From: a virus
Taxonomy: Duplodnaviria > Heunggongvirae > Uroviricota > Caudoviricetes
Strand: one strand, 5' to 3'
Length of the DNA: 13,144 nucleotides
IMG/VR virus record: IMGVR_UViG_2537561709_000009
This document shows positions 1 through 7,694 of this stretch, piece by piece. Made by a program: the position numbers and the translations under genes. The number at the start of each line of letters is the position of its first letter. The stretch's first letter is position 1. The notes beneath the pieces are model-generated. The model was not told where the DNA came from. It made no database searches and was given only the letters and a program-made list of their open reading frames with translations.

Positions 1-236
1 GCCCTACACTGGTGAAATTCATGATAAACGCTGTCAGCAGCACCACCGTAATCATGGCGATCAGCGAGCAGACGTGTGTAGTTATCCAGCGTAAAGACCA
101 TTTTGACAAAACTGGCGTCGTCGCGGGCCAAAAAGCTGGTGCCAATGATCATCAGGTTGGGCAGAAAGACAAACAACACAAGCCAACCGACAATAGTGAC
201 AATCACTACATTCTGGAACTTACTTGTGTTCTTCAT
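1..236 (-). CDS. potB: Spermidine/putrescine ABC transporter permease PotB, N-terminal fragment (gene continues beyond the window start)
   Basis: Reverse-strand ATG at 236-234 translates to [53 protein letters not shown] with no stop before position 1; matches PotB N-terminus as I recall it. Start overlaps the potA stop (operon coupling). The ORF track missed it because the stop lies outside the window. Confidence 0.9.
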
Positions 237-1356
237 CAGCCAGTACGACCTCCCAGCTTTCTACCCAATTAATGGCCATTTTTTGGTCGAGAGAGTGGTC
301 AAAGTCAGGATCGTCTTCATTGAAGAATTCGCTGACCATCACCATCTTGCCATTTTCCAGTTCAACAACCGACTCCAGCGTCATGCCTTTGTAGTTACGC
401 TCGCGAACGTAACCAATCAGCCCTTCAGCGTGGTTGTCGTCGTTAATCTCTTCAACACGTAAGTCTTCCGGGCGCAGCAGAACATGCAGTTTTTGCCCCG
501 GTTCAACGGCGAAGTTAACGTAGATATTACATTCGCGGCCTTCAACGTTGGCGCGTACGCGCTGCTCGTCGAGACGTTCGATGACAGTGGCGTTAAACAT
601 ATTGATTTCGCCAATGAACCCGGCAACAAACAGGTTTTTCGGCTCTTCGTAGATTTCACGCGGCGTGCCGTCTTGCTCAATGCGACCATCGCGCATCACC
701 ACAATCCTGTCTGACATGGTGAGTGCTTCTTCCTGATCGTGAGTCACGAAGACGAATGTAATGCCAAGCTTACGCTGTAACGCTTTCAGCTCGTTCTGCA
801 TTTGCTTACGCAGTTTGTAATCCAGCGCTGAGAGCGACTCATCCAGCAACAACAGACGAGGCTTGTTAACCACCGCGCGAGCAATGGCGACGCGTTGCTG
901 TTGACCACCAGAGAGCTGATGCGGTTTACGTTGAGCGAAGGTTTCCAGCTGCACCATCCGCAGGGCTTCCATCACGCGGGGCGTAATTTCAGCAGCGGGG
1001 GTTTTTTGCATGCGCAACCCAAAGGCCACATTTTCGAACACGGTCATGTGGGGGAAAAGTGCGTAGCTTTGGAAAACAGTGTTCACATAGCGGTTTTCCG
1101 CCGGAACGTGGGTGATGTCCTCGTTATCCAACATGATGCGTCCGGAATCAACAGTTTCCAGACCTGCAATCAGGCGAAGAACGGTTGTTTTACCGCAGCC
1201 AGAAGGGCCAAGCAGCGTGAGGAACTCGCCATTGTTGATAGTCAGATCCAGCTGGGGAATGACCTCTTTACCATCAAAGCATTTGCGAATTCCCGCCAAT
1301 TGCACCAGCGGTGAAAGCGAACTCGGTTGTTTATTCAATTTTTTACTCTGTCCCAT
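220..1356 (-). CDS. potA: Spermidine/putrescine ABC transporter ATP-binding protein PotA
   Basis: 378-aa ORF with Walker [13 protein letters not shown] signature LSGGQQQR and Walker B LLLLDE; full-length match to E. coli PotA as I recall it. Confidence 0.97.
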
Positions 1357-1605
1357 GTAAACGCAACGGATGGCTTACCGATGCGGGGTTTGTGGTTAAC
1401 CACCTTGGTGACTCTTAATGAGGGCGGTAATTCTACGGCAAACCGCTTGAATCGCCAATCTTTGTTGTGAATTACTGGCTTAGCTTTATATTCATTAAGG
1501 TAATGCTGATAAATATTCCCGCTTGCAGGGGTAAAAGTGACCTGACGCAATATTTGTCTTTTCTTGCTTCTTAATAATGTTGTCACAAAAAGTGAGGGTG
1601 ACTAC

Positions 1606-2832
1606 ATGGATAAACTACTTGAGCGATTTTTGAACTACGTGTCTCTGGATACCCAATCAAAAGCAGGGGTGAGACAGGTTCCCAGCACGGAAGGCCAATG
1701 GAAGTTATTGCATCTGCTGAAAGAGCAGCTCGAAGAGATGGGGCTTATCAATGTGACCTTAAGTGAGAAGGGCACTTTGATGGCGACGTTACCGGCTAAC
1801 GTCCCTGGCGATATCCCGGCGATTGGCTTTATTTCTCATGTGGATACCTCACCGGATTGCAGCGGCAAAAATGTGAATCCGCAAATTGTTGAAAACTATC
1901 GCGGTGGCGATATTGCGCTGGGTATCGGCGATGAAGTTTTATCACCGGTTATGTTCCCGGTGCTGCATCAGCTACTGGGTCAGACGCTGATTACCACCGA
2001 TGGTAAAACCTTGTTAGGTGCCGATGACAAAGCAGGTATTGCAGAAATCATGACCGCGCTGGCGGTATTGCAACAGAAAAACATTCCGCATGGTGATATT
2101 CGCGTCGCCTTTACCCCGGATGAAGAAGTGGGCAAAGGGGCGAAACATTTTGATGTTGATGCCTTCGATGCCCGCTGGGCTTACACTGTTGATGGTGGTG
2201 GCGTAGGCGAACTGGAGTTTGAAAACTTCAACGCCGCATCGGTCAATATCAAAATTGTCGGTAACAATGTTCATCCGGGCACGGCGAAAGGAGTGATGGT
2301 AAATGCGCTGTCGCTGGCGGCACGTATTCATGCGGAAGTTCCGGCGGATGAAAGCCCGGAAATGACAGAAGGCTATGAAGGTTTCTATCACCTGGCGAGC
2401 ATGAAAGGCACCGTTGAACGGGCCGATATGCACTACATCATCCGTGATTTCGACCGTAAACAGTTTGAAGCGCGTAAACGTAAAATGATGGAGATCGCCA
2501 AAAAAGTGGGCAAAGGGTTACATCCTGATTGCTACATTGAATTGGTGATTGAAGACAGTTACTACAATATGCGCGAGAAAGTGGTTGAGCATCCGCATAT
2601 TCTCGATATCGCCCAGCAGGCGATGCGTGACTGCGATATTGAACCGGAACTGAAACCGATCCGCGGCGGTACCGACGGCGCGCAGTTGTCGTTTATGGGA
2701 TTACCGTGCCCGAACCTGTTCACTGGCGGTTACAACTATCATGGTAAGCATGAGTTTGTGACTCTGGAAGGTATGGAAAAAGCGGTGCAGGTGATCGTCC
2801 GTATTGCCGAGTTAACGGCGCAACGGAAGTAA
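1606..2832 (+). CDS. pepT: Peptidase T (tripeptide aminopeptidase, M20 family)
   Basis: ORF track gives 1564-2832; I prefer the internal ATG at 1606 ([17 protein letters not shown]...), which has a GAGGGTG Shine-Dalgarno at 1594-1600 and gives the 408-aa length I recall for PepT. Confidence 0.95.
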
Positions 2833-2880: not shown

Positions 2881-4002
2881 TTACCCTTCGAAGAACCAAT
2901 ACCCGCTATTGACCAGCGCCGCGAGCATCGCGAGGAATGACGGATCTTCCAGCGCATCGCCAAAATTCTCCGCAGTCAGCGCAATGTTGCTGGCGAGTGC
3001 ATCCAGTGCCGGACGGTGCGGGGAATCGATCTTCTCACCATTGGTATACACGTCGTCGCCAATGCGCAATACGCGCAGACCACCCAGGCGCACCAGCACA
3101 TCACCTTGTTTCAGCGCATCGTAGATTTCATCTGGCTGATAAGGCGGCTCCGGCGGCGCGATATCCAGTTCATGACGTGACTGGGATATAAACTCGCCAA
3201 ACCATTGCTTAAAGTGTTCCGGCTGGTTGATCAATTCGAGCATCATCTCACGCAGTTTATCCATCTCTTGCGGCAGAACGTCCGCAGGATGAGCGCGAGG
3301 TGGAACATCAGGATCGCTGTAGTAGTTGCCGCCCAGTTCGCGTTGCAGCACATAATCGGCAAATCCGCTAATTAATTCCCGCGTATTTGGCGCGCGAAAA
3401 CCCACGGAATAGTTCATCGCATTTTCCAGCGCGTAGCCTTCATGCGGGAATCCTGGCGGAATATAAAGAATATCGCCAGGCTCCAGCTCTTCATCGATGA
3501 TGGCTTCGAACGGATCGACCTGTAACAGATCCGGATGTGGGCAGTGCTGTTTCATTTGCAGCTTCTCGCCCACTCGCCAGCGACGACGTCCGGTACCCTG
3601 AATGATAAACACGTCGTACTGATCGAGATGCGGGCCGACGCCGCCGCCAGGTACAGAAAAAGAGATCATCAGATCATCAATACGCCAGTCCGGTAGTTCA
3701 CGGAACGGTCGCATCAGCGCGGCGGTCGGCTCATGCCAGTGGTTCACTGCTTGCACTAACAATGACCAGTTAGTTTCACCGAGATGATCGTAGCTTTCGA
3801 ACGGACCGTGGCTGACCTGCCATTTTCCATCCTGGTGACTGACCAGTCGACTGTCGACTTCGCTTTCCATCGCCAGACCCGCCAACTCGTCTGGAGAGAT
3901 CGGGTCAATAAAATTATTAAAGCCGCGTTTTAACACCACCGGGCGTTTCTGCCAGTGACGTTCAAGAAAATCGGGCCAGTTAAGAGTGAGTTGGTATTCC
4001 AT
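2881..4002 (-). CDS. roxA: Ribosomal protein uL16 arginine hydroxylase RoxA/YcfD (JmjC/cupin 2-oxoglutarate oxygenase)
   Basis: ORF track gives 2881-4011 (MLNMEYQ...); start at 4002 (MEYQLTLNWPDFLERHWQKRP...) gives the 373-aa product I recall. Contains the cupin/JmjC-like region (YIPPGFPHEGYALENAMNYSVGFRAP). Start choice 4002 versus 4011 is unresolved. Confidence 0.93.
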   Translation of the reverse strand: MEYQLTLNWPDFLERHWQKRPVVLKRGFNNFIDPISPDELAGLAMESEVDSRLVSHQDGKWQVSHGPFESYDHLGETNWSLLVQAVNHWHEPTAALMRPFRELPDWRIDDLMISFSVPGGGVGPHLDQYDVFIIQGTGRRRWRVGEKLQMKQHCPHPDLLQVDPFEAIIDEELEPGDILYIPPGFPHEGYALENAMNYSVGFRAPNTRELISGFADYVLQRELGGNYYSDPDVPPRAHPADVLPQEMDKLREMMLELINQPEHFKQWFGEFISQSRHELDIAPPEPPYQPDEIYDALKQGDVLVRLGGLRVLRIGDDVYTNGEKIDSPHRPALDALASNIALTAENFGDALEDPSFLAMLAALVNSGYWFFEG

Positions 4003-4204
4003 GTTAAGCATCCACAGGCTGGTATCTGCAACCGATTATAACGGATGCTTAACGTAATGCGTGAAGTATGGACATATTTTATCAATTAGTGTTTTTTGCC
4101 GTTTCATAATGTTTCAGATTGTTCATTATATTTTTGATTATAAACAGATTTGTGATTTTCCTTGTTCCAGCTTGTTTCACGTTGTAGCCCTTTGTGCAAC
4201 GATC

Positions 4205-4229: not shown

Positions 4230-5480
4230 GTGATGACCGGAATCAAAATTATGAGCAGAGCACTTAACAAACTGAGCGATACACAGCTGAGGAAAATCAA
4301 CGGCACACCCGCCCAAAAAACAGCCTTTCTTAATGACGGTGGAAACCTGAGCGTCAGGCATTCAACCAGTGGCCTTTTAACCTGGTATTTCACTTACAGG
4401 GCCGGAACGGGAAGGGGGGCACCACCGGAACGCATTAAGCTGGGAAATTATCCTGATCTGAGCCTGAAATCAGCCAGGGAAAAAGCCGCCCAGTGTCGCG
4501 CATGGCTGGCAGAGGGGAAAAATCCACGTCATGAGCTTAATTACACCGTACAGGAAGCGTTAAAGCCGGTAACGGTTGGCGATGCGCTCACCTACTGGCT
4601 TGAGTCGTACGCAAAGGAAAACCGCGTGGATTATGCCGCCCTGAAAAAGCGCCTTAATAATCACGTAATACAGCACATTGGTGCTATGCCGCTGGATAAA
4701 TGCGAGCTACGGCACTGGCTGGCCTGTTTTGACCAGGTGGCAAAGCGAACGCCTGTTACTGCCGGATTCTTGCTACAGACGTGCAAACAGGCGCTTAAGT
4801 TCTGCCGGAGGCGGCGCTATGCAATCAGCAACGTTCTTGATGATATGAGTGTGGCGGACGTTGGGAAAAAACCGGATATAAGCGAGCGTGTCTTAAGCAC
4901 CAAAGAACTGGGCGAATTATTGCAGGCACTGGACAAAAAAATATTCTCCCCCTACTACATCGCGTTAATCCGCCTCCTGATTGTGTTCGGATGCCGGACG
5001 GTAGAACTGAGGTTATCGGAGATCAGCGAGTGGGATTTTACCGAAATGCTCTGGACCGTTCCGAAGGAGCACAGCAAAACGAAGGTAGCCATATTCCGGC
5101 CTATACCGGAAGCAATACTGCCGTTCATCACGCAGCTGGTGGAGCAGAACAGGCACACGGGCTTATTGCTGGGGGAAGTGAAACAGGAGGCCAGCGTATC
5201 GCAGTATGGAAGATTAGCGCACAGGAGGCTTAATCACCCTCACTGGTCACTGCATGACATCCGGCGCACCTTTACAACCATGCTGAACGATTTAGGCGTT
5301 GATCCGCATGTCGTGGAGCAGCTTACAGGCCACCAGATGCCAGGAATGCAGCGAGTTTATAATCATTCCCGTTATCTGGATGCGAAACGCAATGCGCTGG
5401 ATATGTGGACGGAGCGGTTAGGGATACTGGCGGGAACACATGAAAACGTAACCACGCTACCAGTAGCCAGAAGAAAATAA
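4230..5480 (+). CDS. int: Tyrosine recombinase / phage integrase (P4/CP4-57-like, with N-terminal arm-DNA-binding-type domain)
   Basis: 416-aa ORF. N-terminus has the LSDTQLRK...GGNLSVR...WYFTYR pattern typical of the arm-binding domain of P4-like integrases. C-terminal catalytic region has R...HxxRxT (HDIRRT) and a terminal tyrosine region (RVYNHSRY). Start is ambiguous: GTG 4230, ATG 4233 or ATG 4251; none has a strong Shine-Dalgarno. Confidence 0.9.
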   Translation: MMTGIKIMSRALNKLSDTQLRKINGTPAQKTAFLNDGGNLSVRHSTSGLLTWYFTYRAGTGRGAPPERIKLGNYPDLSLKSAREKAAQCRAWLAEGKNPRHELNYTVQEALKPVTVGDALTYWLESYAKENRVDYAALKKRLNNHVIQHIGAMPLDKCELRHWLACFDQVAKRTPVTAGFLLQTCKQALKFCRRRRYAISNVLDDMSVADVGKKPDISERVLSTKELGELLQALDKKIFSPYYIALIRLLIVFGCRTVELRLSEISEWDFTEMLWTVPKEHSKTKVAIFRPIPEAILPFITQLVEQNRHTGLLLGEVKQEASVSQYGRLAHRRLNHPHWSLHDIRRTFTTMLNDLGVDPHVVEQLTGHQMPGMQRVYNHSRYLDAKRNALDMWTERLGILAGTHENVTTLPVARRK

Positions 5481-5575: not shown

Positions 5576-5844
5576 GCGAAAAAGCGTACGGATTTATAAG
5601 TAGCTGATTTTTAATGTGTTACTGGTTTTTTATACACTAGCGAATCACTCTTTAAAGAGCGAGAAAAAAGGCATGGAACAATATTTTATGCCTTTGTATT
5701 AACATGAATTTAAAAGATTTTATTCTTACTTTTTCATTTTCTGTAAATCATACATCCTCAGTATTTGCCATTCATCACTCTAGCGGGAACAATACGACAC
5801 AATAAGACACCTGATGACTCTTTAAGAAACGAAAGGGGGCAATA

Positions 5845-6033
5845 GTGTTAAGCACTGATCGGTTTATACGTGAAAAAGAATGCGAAAAACTAACCGGCCT
5901 TAGCCGTACGTGTCGCTACCGCCTGGAAAAGGCCGGACAATTCCCATCACGTCGTAAACTTGGCGGTCGTTCCGTTGGCTGGTCTTTATCCGAGGTTCTG
6001 GCCTGGAAGGATAGCTGCAAGGCAGTTCATTAA
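5845..6033 (+). CDS. alpA: AlpA-family phage transcriptional regulator (excisionase-like HTH)
   Basis: 62-aa ORF from GTG 5845 with AAGGGGG Shine-Dalgarno at 5833-5839. Helix-turn-helix segment LTGLSRTCRYRLEKAGQFP and C-terminal GWSLSEVLAW resemble AlpA of CP4-57 as recalled. Same orientation as int and downstream of it, as in CP4-57-type elements. Confidence 0.8.
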   Translation: MLSTDRFIREKECEKLTGLSRTCRYRLEKAGQFPSRRKLGGRSVGWSLSEVLAWKDSCKAVH

Positions 6034-6179
6034 TCACGCTGGCGGCACACAGCCGCCACACATCAATCATCTGAACACAGAGCTATAACCATGAAGATTG
6101 AATATACGCCAGAACGTGGGCGGGGATTCGTTCGCCCTGGTGAGACTGGAAAACCACAAAATTGGGGTTTTTCAGGCAT

Positions 6180-6207
6180 AAAAAAAGCGGCCCCGAAATG
6201 GAGCCGC
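6180..6207 (-). terminator. Candidate intrinsic terminator for a minus-strand transcript (Arc-like operon)
   Basis: On the minus strand GCGGC / 11-nt loop / GCCGC is followed by seven U (plus-strand A-run 6180-6186). The stem is only 5 bp, so this is weak. Confidence 0.35.
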
Positions 6208-6302
6208 CTTTCTGAACAGATAACCCGCTGCGCCTTATGTGTATATGATCCCAAACATAAGCACGGGGATGATAGCCGCTATCAGGCTGGTGGGCAATGC
6301 TA

Positions 6303-6491
6303 TCAGTCTGGTTCAGTTCGTTGCCATACCTGCAATGGGCGCGTTTCCCTGTACTCTTTAAGGAATTGCTCAAGGGCAAAAGCACATGGCGCGAATCTTT
6401 CTGATTCATGCTCTATCTTTCTGCGCCGTCTTTTCCGTGCCGGTGATAATGTTTTGGTCAATTCTTTATCGGTCATTGTGTTGTCCTGCAT
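6303..6491 (-). CDS. Hypothetical small basic protein downstream of the Arc-like gene (coding status uncertain)
   Basis: 62-aa ORF (MQDNTMTDKELTKTLSPARKRRRRKIEHESERFAPCAFALEQFLKEYRETRPLQVWQRTEPD). An internal ATG at 6476 has an AGGA 7 nt upstream. Lies between the Arc-like stop and the candidate minus-strand terminator. No recognisable family. Confidence 0.25.
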   Translation of the reverse strand: MQDNTMTDKELTKTLSPARKRRRRKIEHESERFAPCAFALEQFLKEYRETRPLQVWQRTEPD

Positions 6492-6533
6492 AGCAATGCG
6501 CCGTAATACCTCACACCACGGCGCTGATAGTTT

Positions 6534-6707
6534 TTATCCTTTGGGTTCTATGCCGCGTTGCTGTAATTCTTTGCGGAGAACGCGTTTAATCCAAGTGGCT
6601 AAAGATGTGTCGCCATCGGCCTTAGCAGCTTCTTCTAGCTGCGCTCTGAAGTCTTCCGGTAATCGCATTTGGTATGGAGGCGAACGTTTTTCTAATGGTG
6701 TTGACAT
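6534..6707 (-). CDS. Arc/MetJ-type ribbon-helix-helix DNA-binding protein (putative element repressor); not in the ORF track
   Basis: Hand-translated 57 aa: MSTPLEKRSPPYQMRLPEDFRAQLEEAAKADGDTSLATWIKRVLRKELQQRGIEPKG. N-terminal beta-strand (YQMRLPEDF) followed by two helices matches the Arc-like ribbon-helix-helix pattern. AAGGG Shine-Dalgarno 8 nt upstream of the ATG. Divergent from the downstream plus-strand operon. Confidence 0.7.
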   Translation of the reverse strand: MSTPLEKRSPPYQMRLPEDFRAQLEEAAKADGDTSLATWIKRVLRKELQQRGIEPKG

Positions 6708-6775
6708 GGTAATTACCCTTTATTGCTATACCTACATGGTAATTACCATTGTACTTGCTATTACACAAAAATCAA
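6704..6775 (-). promoter_or_regulatory. Promoter of the Arc-like gene with two palindromic operator candidates (GGTAATTACC)
   Basis: Minus strand: -35 TTGATT (6775-6770), 16-nt spacer, -10 TACAAT (6753-6748). Perfect palindrome GGTAATTACC at 6738-6747 (directly after the -10) and at 6708-6717 (overlapping the Shine-Dalgarno, abutting the ATG). Each sits in a 14-bp direct repeat ACATGGTAATTACC, 30 bp apart. Confidence 0.5.
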
Positions 6776-6837
6776 CGCCCCGCAGTGCTGGGAACACATA
6801 CGGGGCGTCTAACCAACAACGTAAACTAGGAGCCGTT

Positions 6838-7035
6838 ATGGTTGCCGTAAATCATATACCACACCTTGTACACACACAAACGGCCTTTGTGTGGCGTTTT
6901 CTGGCACTGAGTGCCGGAGAATCTCAAATCATCCACGTAACCGCCTGGACGGAACGCGAAGCGCGTAACCGTTGCCCGTCCGGTTGTGTTGCTGTATTTG
7001 CCGCCCGTATTCGTCAGGAGGTGCGCCATGATTAA
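6838..7035 (+). CDS. Small protein, Icd-like (P4 host-cell-division-inhibitor-like) by recalled motif
   Basis: 65 aa, MVAVNHIPHLVHTQTAFVWRFLALSAGESQIIHVTAWTEREARNRCPSGCVAVFAARIRQEVRHD; AGGAG Shine-Dalgarno at 6828-6832. This is the only credibly coding part of the 314-aa track ORF 6091-7035. Family assignment rests on memory of the FxWRF...EREAR...FAARI pattern and is unverified. Confidence 0.6.
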   Translation: MVAVNHIPHLVHTQTAFVWRFLALSAGESQIIHVTAWTEREARNRCPSGCVAVFAARIRQEVRHD

Positions 7036-7240
7036 TCTGTCACTTACTGACCTTAACCGCATTCAGTTTCGTGAGAAATTCACAGGGCAGCTACTGGTCA
7101 ATGTGGATAAAGGTCGCGTGGTGTGTAATTACCACTTACCAGATGAAGCAATTGTCGCCACAAGGGAATCATTACAGGAAATCACAAAACGTGCCGGAAT
7201 GATTAACACGAATATTCAGGGGATGCTTTATGCACAATAA
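7028..7240 (+). CDS. Hypothetical protein (70 aa)
   Basis: ATG 7028 with AGGAGG 5 nt upstream; start overlaps the upstream stop (7033-7035). Track ORF 6986-7240 trimmed to this start. Confidence 0.65.
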   Translation: MINLSLTDLNRIQFREKFTGQLLVNVDKGRVVCNYHLPDEAIVATRESLQEITKRAGMINTNIQGMLYAQ

Positions 7241-7694
7241 AACCACACCGGACGCAGCCGCCGAAGCCATCAAAACGCTGATGCACGCGCTGATTGATAT
7301 TTCTGTTATCGCGGACAGGGCACATAAGCACGCCACCAGCGAAACAGAATATGCCGGTGCTTTCGTTCCTCACTCACTGGCTGTCATGCAATTTAGTGCT
7401 GATACGGCGCTGAATGAGGCCAAAGCTATCCTGATTGCTGATTGTGAAAATGGGGGGGTTATGCGTGATGATCGTTTTAATTCCCTGAAACAGGAATTTT
7501 CCGGCGTTCCTGATGATGCGGCTGATGCGCTTTCGTCAATGCCAGAACTTATTAGAGCGGCTTTTTTCTTACTTTCCACGAGAGAATATAAATCAACGGG
7601 GCTTGATGTACTGAATATCGCCGCCGATTATGCGGAATATGTGGCAGAGGCGCGTTATAGAAGAAAATTTCCTGAGGATGTAAGCCATGCGTGA
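7230..7694 (+). CDS. Hypothetical protein (154 aa), predicted helical
   Basis: ATG 7230 overlaps the upstream stop (7238-7240); GGGG-type Shine-Dalgarno upstream. No recognisable motif. Confidence 0.75.
   Translation: MHNKTTPDAAAEAIKTLMHALIDISVIADRAHKHATSETEYAGAFVPHSLAVMQFSADTALNEAKAILIADCENGGVMRDDRFNSLKQEFSGVPDDAADALSSMPELIRAAFFLLSTREYKSTGLDVLNIAADYAEYVAEARYRRKFPEDVSHA

Follow-up and report, generated by a model that had tools for sequence, protein, structure and literature searches.

A conserved Arc-like ribbon-helix-helix protein and paired palindromes at the predicted replication promoter of an Escherichia coli phage satellite

We analysed a 13,144-nucleotide stretch of DNA (hereafter the window; IMG/VR record IMGVR_UViG_2537561709_000009). 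It is a segment of the Escherichia coli chromosome that carries, beside roxA, an integrated capsid-encoding phage satellite of the phage-inducible chromosomal island (PICI) or capsid-forming PICI (cf-PICI) type. Our subject is the region between the alpA gene of this satellite and its replication operon, where a preliminary description made from the letters of the sequence had proposed an unannotated gene for a 57-amino-acid Arc-like repressor controlled by two operators of its own. The region holds the following features, with the predicted promoter of the repressor gene designated P_arc and that of the replication operon P_rep.

6534-6707, minus strand: gene for a 57-amino-acid predicted repressor of the Arc-like ribbon-helix-helix (RHH) type, supported by a coding-pattern test, homologues and profiles.
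6708-6717, no strand: candidate operator O2, a perfect palindrome GGTAATTACC, identified by exact copies and by the presence of a palindrome at the ATG in most related loci.
6738-6747, no strand: candidate operator O1, a perfect palindrome GGTAATTACC, identified by exact copies and lying directly 3' of the P_arc -10.
6748-6775, minus strand: P_arc, the predicted promoter of the repressor gene itself, with -35 TTGATT (6775-6770), a 16-bp spacer and -10 TACAAT (6753-6748).
6701-6729, plus strand: P_rep, the predicted promoter of the icd-like gene and replication operon, with -35 TTGACA (6701-6706), a 17-bp spacer and -10 TGCTAT (6724-6729).
6766-6845, minus strand: predicted cis-antisense RNA of about 77 nt, supported by covariation, G-U bias and folding energy.
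6851-6879, minus strand: putative promoter of the antisense RNA, read from the sequence, with -35 TTGTGT (6879-6874), a 17-bp spacer and -10 TATGAT (6856-6851).
5845-6033, plus strand: alpA, of the activator/excisionase family (Pfam Phage_AlpA, E=5e-17).
6303-6476, minus strand: second small gene encoding a basic protein of 57 amino acids (MTDKEL...KRRRRK...HESERFAPCAF) that matches phrog_21027, of unknown function (E=2e-16).
6838-7035, plus strand: icd-like gene of 65 amino acids (NCBIfam NF033153, E=5e-18), the first gene of the operon.

The open reading frame (ORF) at 6534-6707 starts with ATG and encodes the 57-residue protein MSTPLEKRSPPYQMRLPEDFRAQLEEAAKADGDTSLATWIKRVLRKELQQRGIEPKG. A search of 5.8 billion proteins recovered 93 clusters of homologues at 54-98% identity, mostly of exactly 57 amino acids, from Escherichia, Shigella, Salmonella, Enterobacter, Yersinia, Serratia, Pantoea and Pectobacterium as well as from Xenorhabdus, Photorhabdus, Pasteurella, Aeromonas, Oceanimonas and Gilliamella. 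This length is conserved in Enterobacterales, Pasteurellales, Aeromonadales and Orbales, and the family is compact, with only 36 clusters (50% identity) at E<=0.001 among 1.84 billion representatives. Across 47 distinct coding sequences, the entropy at the three codon positions is 0.60, 0.34 and 1.37, and 59% of the differing codons are synonymous. The three antisense frames of the same sequences are interrupted by stops in 45, 19 and 47 of the 47. Judged by this coding pattern, the ORF is a real gene under purifying selection, as the preliminary description had supposed. Its position between alpA and the primase/helicase operon is kept in Pasteurella, Gilliamella, Aeromonas and E. coli.

RefSeq records of E. 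coli O157 have no gene at 6534-6707 and instead carry an incomplete 'Icd-like' pseudogene on the opposite strand, over window positions 6091-6684. On that strand a 314-amino-acid open frame (6091-7035) runs antisense to two real small genes. The plus-strand translation of 6091-6684 gave no family match, and only 6838-7035 matches the Icd-like model. Given the coding pattern of the repressor gene and the stops in its antisense frames, we therefore consider the 314-amino-acid frame a shadow ORF, and we rejected both it and the RefSeq pseudogene as mere shadows cast by the minus-strand genes. The pseudogene call, together with the omission of the repressor, looks like a recurrent annotation error. 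The word 'unannotated' accordingly holds for the RefSeq O157 records and has to be narrowed elsewhere, since at least 1000 contigs have contributed database entries for the identical protein under the name 'hypothetical protein'. One public collection lists this exact sequence in 6226 of its blocks, and the module is therefore common in E. coli; it is also present in Shigella, Salmonella, Yersinia, Pectobacterium, Photorhabdus, Xenorhabdus, Pasteurellaceae and Gilliamella.

To place the protein in a fold class we combined structure prediction with profile comparison. The AlphaFold2 model, built on a 52-sequence alignment, has a pLDDT of 76, an extended N-terminus and helices at residues 18-31 and 36-50. 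The predicted fold matches RHH proteins only, and it contains the N-terminal beta-strand followed by two alpha-helices within about 45 residues by which the RHH superfamily is recognized. Residues 6-55 match PHROG 228, 'Arc-like repressor', at E=1.5e-6 and 29.2 bits in a collection that has no curated cut-off. When the family is aligned with the Arc protein of phage P22 by hhalign, the strand and helix A fall in register (E=8e-4; PQFNLRWPREV vs PQYQMRLPEDF). Among the relatives, 20 of 52 match Pfam Arc (PF03869) at E<0.1, the best at 1.5e-4. Searched by sequence against solved structures, the family profile returned only designed helical-repeat proteins and other spurious matches.

The palindrome GGTAATTACC occurs in exactly two perfect copies in the whole window, O2 and O1. 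Each of them lies within a 14-bp direct repeat, ACATGGTAATTACC (6704-6717 and 6734-6747), and the two are spaced 30 bp apart; no copy of the repeat appeared in any of 200 shuffles, so that none would be expected by chance. O2 abuts the ATG of the repressor gene (6707-6705) and shares two G's with its AAGGG Shine-Dalgarno sequence, a 2-nt overlap, and O1 follows the -10 of P_arc. Exact copies and shuffles thus bear out the palindromes, the repeats and their placement as first described. The only other candidate in the window is a one-mismatch copy, TGTAATTACC, at 7124-7133 within a 70-amino-acid gene (7028-7240), which is about what chance would give. This search for operator copies across the window found no support for an action of the repressor at alpA or int.

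We collected 72 related loci, and in 57 of them the gene start and the region upstream could be read. In most of these loci, which come from several bacterial orders, the two-operator layout over the promoter and ribosome-binding site is kept: one palindrome stands at or within a few bases of the ATG, and another, beside a -10 hexamer, is found 27-50 bp further upstream (mostly 30-31 bp). Most loci with GGTAATTACC at the ATG have a perfect ATG-proximal site and an upstream site with one or two deviating bases. Three or four operator copies are present in some relatives (Gilliamella loci L028 and L031, Aeromonas locus L006, and also L007 and L019-L023), and there the additional ones overlap the -35 of the repressor promoter or make up its -10 (TGTAATTACAAT).

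The sequence of the half-sites differs between lineages, and so does the beta-strand of the protein. Half-site GGTAATTACC or GGTnnTTACC goes with the strand SP(Q/P)(Y/F)QMRL, half-site TGTAATTACA with TDQYQ(I/L)RL, and half-site (A/T)GTAATTACA with SQQYQIRL and STQYQLRL. A mixed GGTAATTACA/TGTAATTACA operator pair accompanies SKQYQMRL, whereas GGTATATACC is found with SPQFPMRL and GTGTCATTACAC with PPFQFRL. Across these lineages the operator sequence co-varies with the strand expected to read the DNA, which is what a relation in which the strand reads the operator predicts.

Two promoters can be read in the operator region. The -10 of P_arc touches O1, its -35 overlaps the U-tail of the predicted antisense-RNA terminator, and related loci can be read in the same way, with TTGnTT in the tail of the terminator and a TAnAAT that touches O1. 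P_rep, which faces P_arc, was overlooked in the preliminary description, so that its picture of a switch simply facing away from the replication operon does not stand. The -35 of P_rep overlaps the start codon of the repressor gene on the other strand, and the next base completes the complement of the ATG (TTGACAT). O2 lies within the spacer between -35 and -10, and O1 covers about +1 to +11. The predicted starts fall near 6736 for the rightward P_rep and near 6741 for the leftward P_arc, about 5 bp apart, so that the predicted polymerase footprints overlap and O1 sits over the start region of both.

P_rep is also recognizable across the relatives, with a -35 of TTGACA, TTGGCA or a close variant and a spacer of 16-18 bp (17 in most) that contains O2. 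Its predicted -10, located between O2 and O1, reads TATGAT, CATAAT, TATTAT or TATATT among other variants; in 25 of 30 representative loci it ends 21-23 bp from the repressor ATG with a score of 9-11 of 12. Codon usage at the start of the gene points the same way. Serine at codon 2 is encoded by TCA in 42 of 42 sequences, compared with 27% TCA among the serine codons elsewhere in these genes, and serine at codon 3 is AGY in 9 of 9. ATGTCAA, the complement of TTGACAT, is thus held constant, and on the evidence of these codons the start-codon region is under a dual constraint, as coding sequence and as the -35 of P_rep.

Because the operators sit in the core of P_rep, the protein is predicted to repress the replication operon directly; most likely it shuts off both that operon and its own gene. 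Where the perfect site lies only in P_rep and the imperfect site is shared by the two promoters, P_rep would be shut at a lower level of repressor than P_arc. The gene also stands where a PICI master repressor would be sought, between int and the replication module and with predicted operators in the replication-operon promoter.

Beside the switch, the sequence suggests a second regulator. The minus-strand RNA at 6845-6766 would form a first hairpin (6843-6811) with the anti-Shine-Dalgarno sequence of the icd-like gene in its loop, a GGUUAGA linker, and a second hairpin (6809-6774) followed by a U-tail (6775-6766). Its putative promoter lies inside codons 5-14 of the icd-like gene. In relatives the module reads, on the repressor strand, as a TAnnnT hexamer, a hairpin with an anti-Shine-Dalgarno loop, a GGTYAGA linker, a GC-rich hairpin whose inner GTG/CAC helix is conserved, and a run of U that also serves as the -35 of P_arc. 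The hexamer lies within the first codons of the rightward gene, at an almost fixed 6-8 nt from its start codon in most loci, though the encoded N-termini differ.

An alignment of 35 sequences supports this structure, with 94.7% of the cells paired. Both sides have changed in 13 of 18 consensus pairs, and 0 of 500 shuffles reach any of the five measures. The G-U pairs number 79 on the minus strand versus 5 that would be G-U on the other, and in the window the minus-strand RNA folds at -33.6 kcal/mol (z=-5.0), compared with z=-1.9 for the plus strand. Rfam gave no match in the switch region when the whole window was searched at E<=1, and a search of 6690-6900 at E<=10 gave chance matches only, which sets the RNA apart from C4, isrK and the known countertranscript RNAs. 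The module is likely a cis-antisense RNA, about 77 nt long, that keeps the icd-like gene from being translated. On the plus strand, a terminator-like hairpin, CACACAAACGGCCTTTGTGTG followed by GCGTTTTCTG, lies at 6873-6893 inside codons 12-22 of the icd-like gene. It overlaps the -35 of the putative antisense-RNA promoter and could be a translation-sensitive attenuator.

We consider it probable that the 57-residue protein is an RHH repressor of the replication operon and of its own gene, with the antisense RNA as a second lock. In each 10-bp palindrome the major groove would receive the paired N-terminal beta-strands (PPYQMRL, about residues 10-16) of a dimer; O1 and O2 are three helical turns apart. 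P_rep would drive the icd-like gene and replication operon rightward, with O2 filling its spacer and O1 covering its start site, and P_arc would drive the repressor gene leftward, with O1 just after its -10 and O2 on the ribosome-binding site. Bound repressor would then silence the replication operon and limit its own synthesis, and RNA polymerase at either of the facing promoters would exclude polymerase from the other. The cis-antisense RNA, ending in the terminator at the -35 of P_arc, would be the second lock, base-pairing with the icd-like mRNA at its ribosome-binding site. AlpA, encoded upstream and in the same orientation as the replication operon, presumably overrides the lock, either by read-through from the alpA promoter across the antisense-oriented repressor gene or by action at P_rep. 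We infer binding and repression, and with them the link to AlpA and to a helper phage, from this arrangement of the sequence; a role of the protein as the immunity factor of the element or as its target of derepression would follow the same logic.

Several points weigh against this explanation. Pfam Arc itself matches the protein at 14.3 bits (E=0.038) over residues 9-32 only, below the gathering threshold of 20.4 bits, and NCBIfam YlcI_YnfO_N (NF041551) at 18.7 bits (E=0.0014), below the curated cut-off of 30 bits. The description as Arc-like thus stands at the level of predicted fold, PHROG 228 and the alignment with Arc: by these comparisons the protein is an Arc-like member of the RHH superfamily, yet it lies outside Pfam Arc in the strict sense. 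The co-variation of operator and strand is counted on related sequences, and the independent changes among them are few. The -10 of P_rep in the window, TGCTAT, is without the critical A at -11, and a G stands at that position in O157-type elements too. TACTAT is found instead in elements at another integration site, and in one at the roxA site, that encode the identical repressor, so a single A-to-G change at -11 has probably weakened P_rep in the window element. P_rep may therefore be weak here, with the main effect of the repressor falling on its own gene, and given such a promoter the replication operon of the window may depend more on AlpA. Finally, overexpression of AlpA alone induces EcCICFT073, the island of strain CFT073 (PMC6092414), which means that control does not lie with a repressor alone and that any such protein can be circumvented.

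The weak -10 is also an argument for a different role, in which the protein is a pure autoregulator that serves to provide a transcriptional roadblock or interference against read-through from the alpA promoter and P_rep is unused in this element. The gene order suits such a role, as alpA lies upstream of the replication operon in the same direction and the repressor gene lies antisense between them. So does the need for AlpA in the induction of EcCICFT073 and of EcCIEDL933, which is induced by the helper phages HK106 and HK446 in an alpA-dependent manner (10.1101/2022.09.08.507074; PMC6092414). However, P_rep is near consensus (up to 11 of 12) in nearly all relatives and held by synonymous-site constraint, which is hard to explain if it is unused, and the TACTAT of siblings with the identical protein argues in the same direction. 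We regard this role as unlikely in general; it is possible for this particular element, with its weak -10, though it would leave the conservation of P_rep elsewhere unexplained.

We give still less credit to a type II toxin-antitoxin pair, with the RHH protein as antitoxin, the protein of 6303-6476 as toxin and the palindromes serving conditional autoregulation only. The second gene does lie 3' of the repressor gene on the same strand, but it is optional in the family, present in some E. coli elements only, and missing in most loci, including those of Pasteurella, Aeromonas and E. coli NCTC11121, and there the RHH gene directly precedes the convergent alpA. Its product matches no toxin family, only phrog_21027, and the RHH protein is without a C-terminal toxin-binding extension. 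What is conserved together with the RHH gene is the promoter of the replication operon rather than the gene downstream. Without a conserved neighbour that could act as toxin, we set the toxin-antitoxin reading aside as improbable. Least credible of all is that the ORF arose by chance, that the palindromes are sites for AlpA, a host protein or a replication initiator, and that the plus strand of 6091-7035 is the true gene, as the RefSeq annotation and the 314-amino-acid frame would have it. Third-position variation and synonymous changes fit the minus-strand frame, the antisense frames are broken in 19-47 of 47 relatives, the Icd-like match is confined to 6838-7035, and the operator changes follow the RHH beta-strand; the coding-pattern test contradicts this reading, and we rejected it. 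The preferred explanation remains a repressor acting on both promoters.

This mechanism is of a known kind. The immunity I region (immI) of P22 contains the Arc and Mnt repressors and the sar antisense RNA, which control ant (PMC2629481). The satellite, as predicted here, resembles it in having a small, autogenously controlled RHH repressor with operators in a compact promoter region and a short antisense RNA directed against the ribosome-binding site of the gene under control. It differs in having one RHH protein where P22 has two; in its target, a replication operon led by an icd-like gene and not an antirepressor; in the orientation of the repressor gene, which is transcribed opposite to the target whereas arc lies within the ant operon; and in its operators, two perfect 10-bp palindromes 30 bp apart. 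In the copy-number control of plasmid pMV158, the RHH repressor CopG and antisense RNA II act on repB. There, as in immI, one operon is under the joint control of a countertranscript and a small RHH repressor. CopG, however, is co-transcribed with repB on a plasmid, whereas the satellite is an integrated phage element with its repressor on the opposite strand and its promoters face to face. The -35 inside the repressor start codon and the palindromes three turns apart are features of the satellite that set it apart from both systems.

A parallel in position is the YlcI/YnfO family (NCBIfam NF041551), whose genes likewise lie between alpA and the icd-like gene, in the same orientation, with a hairpin region of antisense-RNA type after them. 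In sequence the relation is weak: three YlcI/YnfO members aligned with our protein by hhalign at E=0.009 and a probability of 4.5%. In EcCICFT073 the slot (our locus L077, 7474-7860) holds a 59-amino-acid protein of this family with an RHH-like pattern. The rightward promoter there (TTGACG, an 18-bp spacer, TATAGT) has two GTGGGCCACACCT repeats bracketing the -10; in contrast to the window, the operator is GTGGGCCACACCT and the promoter is intergenic, not placed over a start codon. Strain 14EC020 (locus L075, 2078-2580) encodes a 101-amino-acid member, one of those with a C-terminal extension, together with another inverted repeat and an antisense-RNA module 97% identical to that of the window. 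Repressor and operator thus appear, from these loci, to be swapped between satellites as one cassette, like the immunity regions of phages. A literature search on the function of YlcI/YnfO proteins found nothing relevant. In CFT073, a homologue of the 6303-6476 gene, annotated as hypothetical, lies downstream of the unrelated YlcI/YnfO-type repressor. Proteins of 101 amino acids from the YlcI/YnfO family also clustered with the 6303-6476 protein; the sequences are unrelated, and we treated this as an oddity of the clustering.

In Gram-positive PICIs (SaPIs), Stl or Rpr holds the island quiescent and is inactivated by binding a helper-phage protein (PMC6092414). The satellite shares with these systems a repressor gene placed between int and the replication module and directed opposite to the replication operon. 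Stl and Rpr are, however, much larger and structurally unrelated, while the satellite protein is a 57-residue RHH protein without a visible sensor domain; and where a helper-phage protein inactivates Stl/Rpr, the documented trigger in Gram-negative islands is activation by AlpA, which stimulates its own expression (PMC6092414). The founding paper on these Gram-negative islands calls it 'unclear' whether they have a global repressor, and regards the contrast with Gram-positive islands as a mystery (PMC6092414). The cf-PICI paper mentions no repressor (10.1101/2022.09.08.507074). Another report places 'immunity repressor RNAs' of the C4/isrK type between alpA and the replication genes and mentions no RHH protein (PMC10111431). 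In the open-access literature searched, we found no relevant description of an RHH or Arc-type repressor in PICIs. The mechanism is familiar, and the context, a conserved and largely overlooked control module in Gram-negative satellites, is apparently undescribed.

A conserved small repressor paired with a predicted antisense RNA would explain, in concrete and testable terms, how these satellites keep quiet in the absence of a helper. The arrangement also points to the site at which AlpA has to act, and the gene accounts for the systematic wrong-strand pseudogene in RefSeq O157 genomes. More tentatively, and with the odds somewhat against it, the RHH protein and the interchangeable YlcI/YnfO-type proteins of the same slot could be the master repressors so far missing from the picture of Gram-negative PICIs and cf-PICIs, forming an immunity module with the undescribed antisense RNA. 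If so, induction by a helper phage through AlpA would work by overriding the module or by transcribing through it, and satellites would belong to exchangeable immunity types set by what the repressor slot holds.

The remaining genes of the window are as follows.

220-1356, minus strand: potA, chromosomal flank.
1564-2832, plus strand: pepT, chromosomal flank.
2881-4011, minus strand: roxA, chromosomal flank, followed by the satellite.
4230-5480, plus strand: int, the integrase gene of the satellite.
7926-8225, plus strand: DUF4222 gene (Pfam match), replication operon.
8222-9622, plus strand: RepA-family helicase (Pfam match), replication operon.
10071-10493, plus strand: single-stranded DNA-binding protein, SSB (Pfam match), replication operon.
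11151-13040: protease-capsid fusion.

The satellite is thus ordered int, alpA, switch, icd-like gene, replication genes and capsid gene. By RefSeq annotation and Pfam, the operon headed by the icd-like gene continues through several small ORFs to the DUF4222, helicase and SSB genes. alpA is convergent with the repressor gene and co-directional with this operon. The icd-like protein also matches PHROGs described as 'transcriptional repressor' (phrog_1743, E=5e-23; phrog_6196, E=7e-18), and a role as inhibitor of cell division is therefore not certain.

E. coli O157:H7 genomes carry an island next to roxA that matches window positions 5800-7300 with 100% identity, and that island and EcCICFT073 occupy one common chromosomal site. 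We searched for a tRNA gene at the integration site and found none. The gene content of the satellite agrees with that of the cf-PICI prototype EcCIEDL933 as known from its published description, a 15.4-kb island of O157 strain EDL933 with int, alpA, rep and capsid genes (10.1101/2022.09.08.507074). After the SSB gene, from 10480 to 13144, the window diverges from the O157 comparison record. This part encodes a 629-amino-acid protein in which a ClpP-type protease is fused to an HK97-like capsid protein, at a place where the O157 and CFT073 islands have separate capsid and decoration genes.

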